From the NCBI RefSeq assembly GCF_054482595.1, contig NZ_CM137008.1: a DNA stretch of 64,000 nucleotides; one strand, given 5' to 3'. Made by a program: the position numbers and the translations under genes. Shown in pieces: positions 2,284-11,076 of this stretch (its first letter is position 1; every line of letters begins with the position of its first letter). The notes under the pieces are model-generated. The model searched no databases. It had not been told where the DNA came from and worked only from the letters and a program-made list of their open reading frames with translations.

Positions 2284-4716
2284 TTACAACAACTGTGCCA
2301 GCCGGTTGATATCCGACTGAATCGCCCCGGCGGTGACGTCGCGCCCCGCGCCAGGCCCACGGATCACCAGCGGGTTATCGCGATACCAGCGGCTTTCGAT
2401 GGCAAAGACGTTGTCGCACGGCAGCAGTGATGCCAGCGGATGGTCTTCACGCACCGCCTCCACGCCCACACGCGCTTTGCCGTTGGCATCGAAACGCGCC
2501 ACGTAGCGCAGCACCAGCCCCATTTCGCGGGCCGCTTCCAGCCGTTGCACCATCTGCTCGTTAAGTTCATCGCCATTTTCAAAGAAATGGTCGATGCTGC
2601 CGCCTTCGCAATGAGCAGGCACCAGCGATTCCACACGTACCTGGTCCGGTTCAATGTTGTAACCCGCTTCACGCGCCAGAATCACCAGCTTGCGCATTAC
2701 GTCTTTGCCGGAGAGGTCGTCACGCGGATCAGGCTCGGTTAAGCCCTGCTGCCACGCCTGATCCACCAGCTCGGTAAACGGCACGCTACCGTCGAATTGC
2801 AGGAACAGCCAGGAGAGCGTGCCGGAGAAGATCCCACTGATCGACAAAATAGTATCGCCGCTGTCGATCAGATCGCGCACGGTGTGGTTGATCGGCAAGC
2901 CCGCACCGACGGTGGCGTTGTACAGCCAGTGACGCCCGGTTTTTTCGAAGGCGTCGTGGATCTGGCGATATTTATTGCTGTCGCTTGCTCCCGCCAGTTT
3001 GTTGGCACTGATGACGTGGAAACCGTGGCTGGCGAAATCAAGATACTGGTCAGCCAGCTGCTGGCTGGCGGTAACGTCCAGCACCACTAAATCATCATAC
3101 GGATGGGCGCGCATCCACAGGAAAAGCGACTCTTCATCCTGCTCGACCGCTTCATCGTTGAAGAAGGCTAACGCGCGGCTGGCGTCCAGCCCGTCATAAC
3201 TCAACAGACTGCGGCGGCTGTCCACCACGCCTGCCAGCACAAATTCAAAGCCGGTACGCGCCGAAAGCGAGCTCTGCTCGCGGGCGAACAGTTCCAGCCA
3301 GCGGGAACCGATATTGCCTTTGCCGAACAATACCAGGCCGATGCGTTTTTCTGCGCGGAAGACGGACTGATGCAGGCCCTGAATCAGGCTTTCGGTCGGG
3401 CCGGTGCGCAGTACTGCCACCAGGCTGATGCCGTCATCGGACTGCCAGGTAAACTCGACCGGCTGGCCTTTCAGTTGCTGCCAGAAGCGGTGGCAATGCA
3501 GCGGGTTACGGGTGACACCCGCCCCGACCATCGCCACCAGCGCCAGCCCCTGACGCAGGCGCAGTTCGCCAGGTAATCCCGCTTCGTCGAGGATTTTCAG
3601 CGCACTGTCGGCCACTTCTGAGGTGTAGCAAAATTGCAGCAACTGGCGATCGTTATGCACGCCAACCGCCAGTGGACGCACCTGGGCACGTTTCAGGATT
3701 TGGTCGATCTCTTTATGCGCCAGTTTGAAATCCTGACTGGCGGGCACCTGAAACTCAATCAAACAGACATCATCGTGGCTGGTGACAATACGCGCACCAG
3801 TACCGGAGGCCAGCACGCGTTCAATGCGCGTGGAACCTTGATCCGGCGTGTAGCTACAGCGCAGCTGCAGGTCGATTTCGCTGCCAGAAACTGGCTGTAA
3901 AGTACGGGCGTGAAGAACGGGAGCCGCCAGACGCGCCAGTTCGCTGGCCTCATCCAGACGCAGCAACGGCAGCAGGCAGGCATCTTTCACTTTACGCGGG
4001 TCGGCACTGTATACCCCGGCGACGTCGCTCCAGATGGTTACGCGAGAAACACCCGCCAGCGCACCGATTTGTGTCGCGGAATAGTCGGAACCGTTACGCC
4101 CCAGCAGCACCGTTTCACCGGCGTTGTTACGGCTGATAAACCCGGTCACCACCAGACGTTTACCCGGATGTTGTACCAGTAGCTGTTGCAGCAACGGGTA
4201 AGAAAGCCCTTCATCAACCTGCGGTTGCGCAGCGCGTTCAGCGCGTAAAAACTCGCGGGCATCAAGCCAGGCCGCTGGCAGCCCTTGTTGATTAAGTACC
4301 GCAGACATCAGTCGCGCCGACCACACTTCACCGTGGCCCACCACTTCCGCATACACTGCGTCGTTAATACCGCTGTCGAGCAGCGCCGCCAGGCGCTCAA
4401 GATCGCTGACAAAAGCGCTAATGAGGCTATCGGCTTCTTCGGCGGGTAGCAGGCCGCTAATCAGATCGCACTGATAGCGACGCAGCGTTTGTTGAACCTG
4501 ATGCGCAGAGAGACGATCGGTCTGGCTTAGTTTCAACCAGTTAATCAACTGGTTAGTGGTGCTACCGGCGGCGGAAACCACCATCATATCGTCAGGCTGA
4601 GAGTACTCCGCCATAATGCCCGCGACACGCAAATAACACTTCACATCAGCCAGACTACTGCCACCAAATTTATGCAGCTGACGACCTTTCGCCCCTGCCT
4701 GCGCAATCACACTCAT
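2284..4716 (-). CDS. metL: Bifunctional aspartokinase II / homoserine dehydrogenase II
   Basis: 810-aa ORF MSVIAQAGAKGRQLHKFGGSSLADVKCYLRVAGIMAEYSQPDDMMVVSAAGSTTNQL... recognised as MetL. Confidence 0.95.
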   Translation of the reverse strand: MSVIAQAGAKGRQLHKFGGSSLADVKCYLRVAGIMAEYSQPDDMMVVSAAGSTTNQLINWLKLSQTDRLSAHQVQQTLRRYQCDLISGLLPAEEADSLISAFVSDLERLAALLDSGINDAVYAEVVGHGEVWSARLMSAVLNQQGLPAAWLDAREFLRAERAAQPQVDEGLSYPLLQQLLVQHPGKRLVVTGFISRNNAGETVLLGRNGSDYSATQIGALAGVSRVTIWSDVAGVYSADPRKVKDACLLPLLRLDEASELARLAAPVLHARTLQPVSGSEIDLQLRCSYTPDQGSTRIERVLASGTGARIVTSHDDVCLIEFQVPASQDFKLAHKEIDQILKRAQVRPLAVGVHNDRQLLQFCYTSEVADSALKILDEAGLPGELRLRQGLALVAMVGAGVTRNPLHCHRFWQQLKGQPVEFTWQSDDGISLVAVLRTGPTESLIQGLHQSVFRAEKRIGLVLFGKGNIGSRWLELFAREQSSLSARTGFEFVLAGVVDSRRSLLSYDGLDASRALAFFNDEAVEQDEESLFLWMRAHPYDDLVVLDVTASQQLADQYLDFASHGFHVISANKLAGASDSNKYRQIHDAFEKTGRHWLYNATVGAGLPINHTVRDLIDSGDTILSISGIFSGTLSWLFLQFDGSVPFTELVDQAWQQGLTEPDPRDDLSGKDVMRKLVILAREAGYNIEPDQVRVESLVPAHCEGGSIDHFFENGDELNEQMVQRLEAAREMGLVLRYVARFDANGKARVGVEAVREDHPLASLLPCDNVFAIESRWYRDNPLVIRGPGAGRDVTAGAIQSDINRLAQLL

Positions 4717-7285: not shown

Positions 7286-7558
7286 ATGGTCACAGTTAAC
7301 CTTCATTGTCCCCGTTGCCAGTCCGTTCAGGTTTACCGTCACGGGCAGAACCCCAAAAGACATGATCGATTCCGCGGCCGTGACTGTCACCGGGTATTTC
7401 AGCTCAGTTACTGTTACGAGCCCCGTAAACCGGGAGTTAAAGACCAAATCGCTGAAATGGCTTTCAACGGTGCCGGGGTTCGCTATACTGCCCGTACGCT
7501 GAAAATCGGCATTAATACAGTCATCCGAACTTTAAAAAACTCTCGCCACGAAGAATAA
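7286..7558 (+). CDS. insA: IS1 InsA-like protein (zinc-finger/HTH)
   Basis: 90-aa ORF MVTVNLHCPRCQSVQVYRHGQ...NGAGVRYTARTLKIGINTVIRTLKNSRHEE; CxxC...CxxC layout and C-terminal LKNS tail as in IS1 InsA, but strongly diverged. Confidence 0.8.
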   Translation: MVTVNLHCPRCQSVQVYRHGQNPKRHDRFRGRDCHRVFQLSYCYEPRKPGVKDQIAEMAFNGAGVRYTARTLKIGINTVIRTLKNSRHEE

Positions 7559-7990
7559 CGTCATCCCCGGTCGCTCATGCTGATGTGGCACTCATCTGCG
7601 AACTTAGTCAGCAATGGAGCTTTGTCGGCAGTAAAGCGCGACAGCACTGGCTCTGGTACGTGTACAACACGAAAACTGGTGGTGTTCTGGCCTACACTTT
7701 TGGCCCCCGGACTGATGAAACCTGTCGTGAATTGCTGGCGCTGCTTACCCTTTTACCATCGGCATGTTGACCACTGACGAATGGGGTAGTTACGCTAGAG
7801 AGTTACCAAAGGAGAAGCATCTGACTGGTAAGATTTTTACTCAGCACATTGAGCGTAACAATCTGACCCTGAGAACCCGAATCAAACGTCTGGCCCGCAA
7901 AACCATCTGTTTCTCGAGTTCTGTAGAACTTCATGAAAAAGTCATCGGTGCTTTTATCGAAAATATATGTTCTACTAATTGGAGTCATCA
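7540..7990 (+). pseudogene. insB: IS1 insB-like transposase region carrying an extra frameshift
   Basis: InsB-like similarity (QQWSFVGSKARQHWLWYVYN...) continues in one frame to a stop near 7770, then resumes in another frame (YPFTIGMLTTDEWGSYAREL...HEKVIGAF). Confidence 0.6.
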
Positions 7991-8047: not shown

Positions 8048-8371
8048 TTACCTCATTCTGCTCTTTTTTCTCAAATGACATATATTATATTTTACATCAT
8101 ATTCATAGGCATATGACATTCCCCCGCCCCCCATTATGTCATTGTGGGTTGATGTTGGGCTTTCATAAAAAAATACATCTTTTTTTGAACTAGCATTAAT
8201 TATATTTACTTTATATATTAAAATATTTTCTCCATCTGGAAATATTTTAGCCACACAATATAAAGCAGCTAAATCCGAATTACTTAAAAATACATTGTCA
8301 TCACTCATAACTCCAGCCATTAAATGACTGGAGACTAAAGCAAGGAAATAACAACATTGTATTGCCTTCAT
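8048..8371 (-). CDS. Putative immunity protein for the adjacent Rhs C-terminal toxin; hydrophobic N-terminus
   Basis: ATG at 8371 lies 1 nt after the toxin stop (8373-8375) with GGGAG 8 nt upstream; product MKAIQCCYFLALVSSHLMAGV... about 107 aa; AT-rich. Confidence 0.65.
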   Translation of the reverse strand: MKAIQCCYFLALVSSHLMAGVMSDDNVFLSNSDLAALYCVAKIFPDGENILIYKVNIINASSKKDVFFYESPTSTHNDIMGGGGMSYAYEYDVKYNICHLRKKSRMR

Positions 8372-8372
8372 T

Positions 8373-9410
8373 TTAATTACTCCCTTGCCTGATAATTGTA
8401 ACTCCATTCCCTTTAGCTTTGGGATTATATTTTAGATAGGTGTTATTTGGTGTTCCCAAGTAACTACTGTATTCTTTTTTTCCCATTCCATTCATATAAG
8501 AATTCGTTAAATCTTTGCTTGAAAAATTTAGACTATCATAAACATCATTTTCTTTTGTTACTTTATTTCCTTTATCGTCAGAGTAAAAACCGTGAGTGTG
8601 ATAATCGCCTACTCTCTCTGAACCTTCAGGGCATTTTATATTTCGCAAGTCTACACTATCATTATCATTTGAACTTATCGGATTCATGGGAAAATATTCA
8701 CCTTGCTTCTTACATATTAGTCCACCATATTCTTTAATCTCGTTAATTGATTCTCCATTACACATTGCCAATGCAAATATTCCAATATCATCTATATTTT
8801 TTGATTTAAATTCATATAATCCCAATGGATCCATGCCATTCACCGGGCTCAGCGGATATGTATACAGGTTCCATCCCCCCTTCAGCCCAATCGGATCCTG
8901 AGTGATATACCGCCCCTGCAGCGGGTCATAATAGCGGTGGCGGTTGTAATACAGGCCGGACTCCTCATCATACTGCTGACCCGGCAGGCGGATGAGCTGC
9001 TGCAGCTGGTGCGGGTTCTCTTCATTCAGCAGGTTGCCCCATTCATCGTATTCTGCGCACCATTCTGTAGCCCCTTCCGTGCTGATAAGCGCCAGCGGCA
9101 GGCCGCGATGGTCGCAGTGGTACAGGTGGATTTTTCGCGCCGGCGTGTACACCGGGTCCATCTGGTTTTGCATCTGCTCCACCGTCAGGCCGCACGATGC
9201 CAGCCAGCGGCGACTTTCCTCACTCACCCGGTCAGCCAGGATTTCACTTTCCAGCCGGTCGAGCATCTGCACCAGCACCGGCGGGAACACCACACTGCCA
9301 CCGTCTTCGCCGCCGGACTGCTGAAGCGCATCCGCCAGGCTGCGGCGCTGCGTTTTCGCCAGCTCACCGGTGGCGGTTTCAACCCTGATGAGTGGCGTGA
9401 AGCCAGGGCA
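8373..9410 (-). CDS. Orphan Rhs core-end plus C-terminal toxin domain (5'-truncated, no native start)
   Basis: Frame is open from the H-repeat junction (about 9410): [32 protein letters not shown]...[17 protein letters not shown]...[10 protein letters not shown] followed by a 147-aa AT-rich variable domain (about 8373-8816). Confidence 0.8.
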
Positions 9411-10653
9411 AGATTACGAAAGCCCGCTCCCCGCAAGGACTGACGCCAGATAGTTTCTGTCCATGGCTGCTTTTCGCATCTTACGTCTTAACCCTGCCTT
9501 GAATACCTTATCATTCGTCAAAATATTAATAGCAATGTGCCGTATCCCTGAAAATAATTCTGCTGCATTTCCTCTTCTTATTTTGCAGTCGTCTTCATTC
9601 ATTACCACGTCCAGACGCCAGTGCAGCTTATTCTCCACGTGCCAGTGATTTCGGATCGCTGTGGCGAATTTCTCAGCGGTTAAATCAGCAGAACTGATAT
9701 AATATCTGACCGTCATTTCTGGCTCTTTCTTTTGCTCTGCTATTATGGACCGAAAGGAGACTGCCACGCATAATTTCTTCAGCCCTTTCCATTCAAACGT
9801 GAAATCAATAAGTTCATCAGGGACATCGCAAACAATATGAAGACGGATTTCTTCTCTGCCGTGACTCTTTTCACTAATTGCGTAACTGTCATGCTCTGGA
9901 TTATTTAATTCTTTCAGCGGAAATTTTTCCTCAAAGGCTTTATTAAGCCGCCCCTGGTTACCTTTTACCGCGAATAAATAATCACCGCCCTGTTTTTGTA
10001 TCTTCTCTGCGATATCTTTCTGGCAACCCATCGCATCAGTTGTGATAATTTTCCCTTTAATATCCAGCATGTTAAGAAGTTCAGGGATAGCTGTAATCTC
10101 ATTAGATTTCTCATCCGTCTTGATCTGTCCGATGACCAGACTGTGCATTGTTGAGAACGCACTAATGACATGAATCGCTCCCCTGCGGCGACTCTTGTCA
10201 TAAGAATGCCGGAGCGTTTTTCCATCAATTGCAATGACGTCTTTATCATCTGAAGAATGACAATCACGCATCCAGTTAATAAAGCACTCATGAAATTTTG
10301 TAGGGCTGATACAGGATACAACTCTGGCAATGGTATCGTGAACAGGAATACCATTTTCAAAATCACCATATTGCTTCAAAAAATCGAGATGTGTTTCCCC
10401 AAAATCCTCTATATCTTCCCAACCTTCTGCACCCGAAATAACGGCACAAATAGTCAACAGTAGAATATCTGATAATTTATGTTCCACTTTCTAGGCTTGT
10501 CTGTAATCGGGGATAATAGAAATATGTTCCATCAATTTTTTAAGTTCCATTTTGTTCTCCTTAATTATACAAGGAGTATTTGATCATGTATAAGCAATAA
10601 AAGACAGCTTTAGGTAATGAGGAATATCTCAATTTTTAAACATAAAATGCGAA
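9411..10653 (-). mobile_element. H-repeat (ISAs1-family) element inserted within the Rhs remnant; boundaries approximate
   Basis: Contains the ISAs1/H-rpt transposase reading frame; flanked by the Rhs N-terminal fragment on one side and the Rhs core-end on the other. Confidence 0.6.
9414..10550 (-). pseudogene. ISAs1-family (H-repeat-associated, YhhI-like) transposase with in-frame amber stop at codon 20
   Basis: ATG at 10550 reads MELKKLMEHISIIPDYRQA then TAG (10493-10491), continuing in frame as [37 protein letters not shown]... (357-aa ORF from GTG at 10487). Confidence 0.75.
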
Positions 10654-11076
10654 TTATTTAGTACAAAAAGTGTACTTCTGATGATCTTTCCCTGGAAACA
10701 GGTGCTCAAAATACAGGCTTCTGCCGCCGTTATCACTGAGTATCAGTGTGTTATCGCGCAGCTGTAAGCGGATATCCGCAGGCATTTTCCAGCCGGGGCC
10801 GAGGCTCCCCACCGGCGCGGGCGTTTTTGTCCGATAACTGCTGTAGGTGCGGGAGAGAATGAACGGCAGCGGGGCGGGCAGGGCGATGTCGGTTTCACCG
10901 GGAAGGACCTTTGCACCCAGCAGCGGATTGACCGGATGGCCGGACGTCACCCCGCCGGGGCACACCGAACAGGCCACGCCGGTGGGGGCACCGATGCGCA
11001 CCCCGGCTGAACCCTGGACAATGCTACCGCCATACTGCGTCATGTCGCCCTGACGCGCCGCCGGTTTTCCGCTCAT
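10654..11076 (-). pseudogene. Rhs N-terminal fragment (PAAR domain) truncated after about 125 aa of Rhs sequence
   Basis: MSGKPAARQGDMTQYGGSIVQGSAGVRIGAPTGVACSVCPGG...LRDNTLILSDNGGRSLYFEHL is the typical Rhs N-terminus; unrelated tail FPGKDHQKYTFCTK then stop. Confidence 0.8.

Follow-up and report, generated by a model that had tools for sequence, protein, structure and literature searches.

A premature amber codon in the transposase gene of an ISEc1 copy at a degraded Rhs locus of Escherichia coli

The H-repeat element situated beside rpmE in the Escherichia coli chromosome analysed here is very probably a dead copy of ISEc1, in which a single G-to-A change converted the tryptophan codon 20 (TGG) of the transposase gene into the amber codon TAG. 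Ribosomes that initiate at the normal, well-equipped ATG would release a peptide of 19 residues and full-length transposase would not be made, while the rest of the gene would be open only for having accumulated few further mutations yet. The mutation appears to have arisen once, at this place, when the element was already the junction of a 2.8-kb Rhs deletion next to rpmE, and a set of E. coli strains has presumably since acquired the allele by descent or through homologous recombination. Such decay of a mobile element, here within an already degraded Rhs locus, is ordinary.

The element and its interrupted reading frame

The window, that is the whole stretch of DNA that was analysed (64 kb), contains a complete ISEc1 or H-repeat element of the ISAs1 family at positions 9404-10694 on the minus strand. 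Its limits and its length of 1,291 bp were set from the comparison with ten ISEc1 copies elsewhere in chromosomes, since similarity among the copies starts and stops exactly at 9404 and 10694, at the ends CAGGG...CCCTG, and the adjoining bases vary. The left terminal inverted repeat, CAGGGAAAGAT (10684-10694, minus strand), and the right one, ATCTTGCCCTG (9404-9414, minus strand), which overlaps the TAA of the transposase frame, were detected as a repeat pair of 12 nt with 92% complementarity and were trimmed by 1 nt according to the comparison of copies. Set against each other, CAGGGAAAGAT (10694-10684) and CAGGGCAAGAT (9404-9414) match at 10 of 11 positions. Only 4-5 differences in about 1,290 bp compared separate the element from the copies L007, L009, L011 and L012, and in the NCBI annotation pipeline (PGAP) the identical sequence bears the name 'ISAs1-like element ISEc1 family transposase'. 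Of 5,426 complete E. coli genomes, 5,346 contain ISEc1-related matches, the median number of places being 7 per genome; a second H-repeat copy was sought within the 64-kb window and the element proved to be the single one there. Judged from its two domains, near-identity to known copies, terminal repeats and conserved acidic residues, the element is the H-repeat of Rhs elements, ISEc1, a member of the ISAs1 family. Features of an active copy that are missing from it are an intact reading frame, because of the nonsense mutation, and a target duplication, because of the adjacent deletion.

Read on the minus strand, the transposase frame opens with ATG at 10550-10548, passes through 19 sense codons for MELKKLMEHISIIPDYRQA (10494-10550), the sole part translatable from the normal start, and meets an in-frame TAG at 10493-10491, followed by AAA and then by GTG at 10487-10485. 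The coordinates and the peptide MELKKLMEHISIIPDYRQA are exactly those of the original prediction. Beyond the stop the frame stays open for 358 sense codons, from K21 to S378, and ends with TAA at 9416-9414; what remains of PF13808 and the PF01609 DDE domain in full are encoded in this part (9414-10490, minus strand). The continuation of the frame had been correctly recognised, but its predicted length of 357 codons is that of the open reading frame listed from the GTG (357 aa, 9414-10487, minus strand), which lies within it.

When codon 20 was restored to sense, the product passed the Pfam cut-offs for PF13808 over residues 8-94 (E=8e-34) and for PF01609 over residues 102-343 (E=1.7e-30), and was 96-98% identical to E. 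coli ISEc1 transposases. Since both domains and these transposases are matched, the long open frame is not due to chance. The stop at residue 20 falls within the conserved N-terminal domain PF13808, and everything downstream, including the DDE domain, is lost to translation from the ATG; the part cut off is probably required for the function of the protein. D109, D172 and E306, which are invariant columns among 18 relatives and are all retained in the window copy, likely form the catalytic triad, as suggested by the IS4-like pattern of motifs.

The nucleotide change at codon 20 is G to A on the coding strand at position 10492, or C to T on the plus strand. Alignment with other H-repeat/ISAs1 copies, proposed as a check on the TGG-to-TAG change, confirmed it: codon 20 is TGG in all ten intact ISEc1 copies aligned at the DNA level (L003, L004 and L007-L014). 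The tryptophan that had been expected at this position was also found at the protein level, in 16 of 18 full-length relatives (66-97% identity), the two most distant (67% identity) having glycine; a stop codon occurs at the site in no other copy or relative, which carry W or G throughout. The nearest intact copies, L007 and L009, show two nucleotide differences in the 1,137-nt frame, one at nt 59 (G vs A, the TGG/TAG site) and the other, synonymous, at nt 354, and at several further Rhs loci an ISEc1 transposase annotated in public data has exactly the sequence of the restored protein. An exact 61-mer with TGG matched 11 records only, since synonymous differences close by set other copies apart; it was therefore unsuitable for counting intact copies, and alignments were used instead.

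The Rhs locus and the distribution of the TAG allele

The window is collinear with the chromosome of E. coli XH990 (2 mismatches in 13,371 bases), so that the XH990 annotation could be transferred to it. The resulting gene order along the minus strand is priA, rpmE, a 5' remnant of rhs, ISEc1, a 3' remnant of rhs, a gene for 'RHS element protein dsORF-f3', IS1, yiiX, metJ and metB. The 5' remnant (10695-11076, minus strand) comprises the first ~127 codons of a PAAR/Rhs gene cut off by the insertion sequence; it shares 97.6% identity with nt 1-381 of an intact rhsA-type gene of 4,167 nt and is labelled by PGAP 'DUF6531 domain-containing protein, missing C-terminus'. The 3' remnant (8373-9403, minus strand), comprising the end of the core and the C-terminal tip, resumes at about nt 3156 of the intact gene, with 96.6% identity to nt 3156-3709 of intact rhsA, and bears the label 'RHS repeat-associated core domain-containing protein, missing N-terminus' (coordinates transferred from XH990). 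As the flanks of the insertion sequence map to nt ~381 and ~3156 of the intact gene and match nt 1-381 and nt 3156 onward, the Rhs core lacks about 2.8 kb, and the ISEc1 copy, by this comparison, constitutes the junction of a ~2.8-kb deletion in the Rhs core beside rpmE. No target-site duplication was found at the element's flanks, ...CACCTGTTTC and GCTTCACGCC, which contain no repeat, and its absence is accounted for by the position of the element at the border of the deletion. It lowers confidence in a simple insertion and takes nothing from the family assignment. Taken as a whole, the locus is an Rhs element in decay.

Downstream of the insertion sequence, the 3' Rhs remnant has an AT-rich C-terminal tip (about 8373-8850, minus strand) past the DPxGL motif (DPLGLY), and an open reading frame of 107 aa (8048-8371, minus strand), annotated 'RHS element protein dsORF-f3', follows the tip; the tip could be that of an orphan toxin and the frame its immunity-like partner. 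A copy of IS1 on the plus strand at 7286-7978 (from 8743-9435 of L001), situated between the Rhs remnant and yiiX, is annotated 'IS1 family transposase, frameshifted'. IS1 normally employs a programmed -1 frameshift, and this flag therefore need not mean inactivation.

A 61-mer centred on the TAG was recovered with 100% identity in 23 complete genomes among the 5,426 of E. coli, and the left rhs/IS junction occurs in the same 23 and is absent from the rest. The carriers, which came from human, pig, chicken, duck, otter and river water on several continents, always have the TAG at this same junction between rpmE and yiiX, and the exact 357-aa frame that follows the stop is on record on 101 contigs. 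That the TAG is an error of sequencing or assembly in a gene that is really intact had been offered as one explanation, and a difference of a single base from the nearest intact copies is what such an error would look like. Nevertheless, the same TAG stands at the same junction in 23 independently sequenced complete assemblies from various hosts and countries, besides the contigs with the 357-aa frame, which makes an error extremely improbable. An intact TGG allele at the same junction was found in none of the complete genomes, the junction query having returned the 23 TAG carriers. Since no genome combines the junction with TGG, the mutation would have arisen at this locus after the rearrangement. 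Strain G3/10, the one further hit of that query, was considered as an instance of the same locus with an intact allele and was rejected, as its intact transposase gene belongs to RhsC next to ybfA, a different locus.

The age of the allele was approached through the carrier A16, whose flanking housekeeping genes and Rhs remnants are 0.8-1.0% divergent from those of the window. Within the insertion sequence the two differ at 2 of 1,291 positions, both changes being nonsynonymous (I225M and E234K); this fits relaxed constraint, two changes being too few as proof, and the low divergence may be due to youth, to recombination or to some remaining constraint. The IS1 region of A16 (L002), compared with that of the window (7286-7978), shows 0 differences in 827 positions. 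The mobile-element segments thus seem to be of more recent date than the DNA around them, which points to recombination or homogenisation in patches. Compared with an intact RhsB-borne copy, 19 codons of the window gene differ, of which 17 are synonymous and the nonsynonymous ones are W20stop and A84T. With 17 of the 19 differing codons synonymous, purifying selection would have acted on the gene until not long before the stop arose, and the stop appears to be late relative to the divergence of the ISEc1 copies. The prediction of a very recent inactivating point mutation is upheld as to the point mutation, all ten intact copies having TGG, but 'very recent' does not agree with an allele shared by 23 genomes and with flanks that differ by ~0.8-1% in A16.

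The allele is already known, being annotated in RefSeq as 'pseudo; internal stop', and the PGAP label at the locus reads 'ISEc1 family transposase, pseudogene, internal stop'. Its significance is small, because in-place decay of insertion-sequence copies is common and the allele is flagged as a pseudogene in the RefSeq annotations of the 23 genomes. Combined with the rhs/IS deletion junction, the TAG nevertheless provides a clean marker for E. coli strains with the rpmE-yiiX Rhs remnant. The 357-aa frame after the stop (9414-10487, minus strand) has also been deposited as a protein (APY06343.1, BBW72842.1, BCG33993.1 and BCG39054.1) under the name 'H repeat-associated protein YhhI', and annotations are thus inconsistent, the same locus being a protein in GenBank and a pseudogene in RefSeq. 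The GenBank entry 'H repeat-associated protein YhhI' at this frame is best read as an annotation artefact.

Translation signals and competing explanations

The ATG is preceded, at a distance of 6 nt, by a Shine-Dalgarno sequence AAGGAG (10562-10557) whose duplex with the anti-Shine-Dalgarno sequence is calculated at -9.2 kcal/mol. The same AAGGAG forms the 3' arm of a predicted stem-loop at 10557-10576 (minus strand) with a 7-bp stem, CTCCTT...AAGGAG, of -8.5 kcal/mol. The stem sequence is retained in the ISEc1 copies L003 and L004, and, by analogy with certain other insertion sequences, the hairpin may reduce translation from read-through transcripts. A promoter-like site at 10592-10564 was rejected, the regional count of such sites being 4 against a mean of 3.0 in shuffled sequence and its -10 box placing the transcript start inside the Shine-Dalgarno sequence.

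Expression from the GTG at 10487, by independent initiation or by reinitiation, would yield a protein of 357 aa, which might be a working transposase or an inhibitor of ISEc1 in trans. In its favour are the in-frame position of the GTG, 3 nt beyond the TAG, the intact DDE domain, the annotation of the frame as a protein in some GenBank submissions, e.g. APY06343.1, and the presence in the carriers of other ISEc1 copies as possible targets (2-11 places per record). Low-level reinitiation after termination at the TAG is possible given this spacing. Nevertheless, this explanation, which the original prediction had also raised, is quite unlikely, as no Shine-Dalgarno sequence serves the GTG: the anti-Shine-Dalgarno duplex there comes to +0.1 kcal/mol, against -9.2 kcal/mol at the ATG, and 79% of element positions pair more strongly. 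The GTG is also the ordinary codon for Val22, with V or I at this residue in all relatives (n=18); the product would be without the invariant residues 10-18 of PF13808 (I10 and I13 to Q18 among the 18 relatives); the allele is confined to one locus; and the pseudogenes of K-12 include ybfL, an H-repeat frame without its first ~25 codons. A particular form of this explanation takes Inh of Tn5/IS50 as its model, a transposase shortened at its N-terminus that blocks transposition. Ribosomes terminating at the TAG would reinitiate at the GTG and make a DDE-bearing protein of 357 residues without the N-terminal 21, which would interfere with intact ISEc1 copies elsewhere in the genome, as a repressor that evolved spontaneously and was retained in this lineage; such a function is considered very unlikely. 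It had further been stated that the stop would disrupt nothing if intact H-repeat transposases normally start at the downstream GTG. Nothing was found in favour of such a start, and it is practically out of the question, since the upstream Met opens 17 of the 18 relatives and Met7, still upstream of the GTG, opens P0009, residues 10-18 are invariant, PF13808 begins at residue 8 and the strong Shine-Dalgarno sequence serves the ATG.

Full-length transposase could also be supplied by amber suppression or by natural read-through of the TAG. UAG is read through in E. coli at very low frequency, and the downstream frame is intact. A search for tRNA genes within the 64-kb window was negative, and none of the 5,426 complete genomes, the 23 carriers included, has a tyrosine suppressor allele of the supF type. 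The supE44-type amber-suppressor allele of glnV exists in 155 complete-genome records; among the matches listed (60 of 155) all are K-12-type laboratory strains and none carries the TAG, and a supE suppressor would put glutamine at a nearly invariant tryptophan. The suggestion of amber read-through thus gained no support from the sequences examined (the window, the 5,426 genomes for supF and the listed supE44 matches), and the stop is conserved in no other copy; full-length synthesis by this route is highly improbable. Programmed read-through or recoding was likewise rejected, because the stop exists at one locus only and no other ISEc1 copy conserves it. The simple loss of the gene through the nonsense mutation at codon 20 is accordingly preferred to all of these.

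Comparison with known systems

Published work on RhsF, H-rpt and ISEc1, as far as it was found, consists of passing mentions, and according to one genome paper transposition of H-rpt has never been observed (PMC3032704). Intact ISEc1/H-rpt elements such as YhhI, YdcC, WP_000420795.1 and P0122 resemble the window copy in their length of 1,291 bp, their terminal repeats and the combination of PF13808 and PF01609; the frames are 98-99.8% identical and both are tied to Rhs elements. Whereas intact ISEc1 has TGG at codon 20, the window copy has TAG, and it forms a deletion junction inside an rhs gene, unlike other ISEc1 copies, which lie downstream of the rhs gene.

The relatives in K-12, among them 'H repeat-associated putative transposase YbfD', offer a closer parallel. 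The H-repeats at RhsC, namely ybfL (a pseudogene), ybfQ ('inactive transposase') and ybfD (truncated), have likewise been inactivated in place beside an Rhs gene, and in ybfL, as in the window copy, the rest of the frame is open, its N-terminal ~25 residues being missing. These three were inactivated by truncation or rearrangement at another Rhs locus, whereas the window copy would owe its inactivation to a single nonsense substitution. Inh of Tn5 is built into every IS50 copy by design and starts from conserved signals of its own. Initiation at the GTG of the window would likewise give a transposase without an N-terminal segment; in contrast, the GTG has no ribosome-binding site and the truncation exists at one locus only. 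The locus itself is found in identical form in the 23 RefSeq E. coli genomes, for instance XH990 (BW242_RS24270) and A16 (AOY69_RS01035), with the same junctions and the same TAG, and nothing substantive differs between them and the window.
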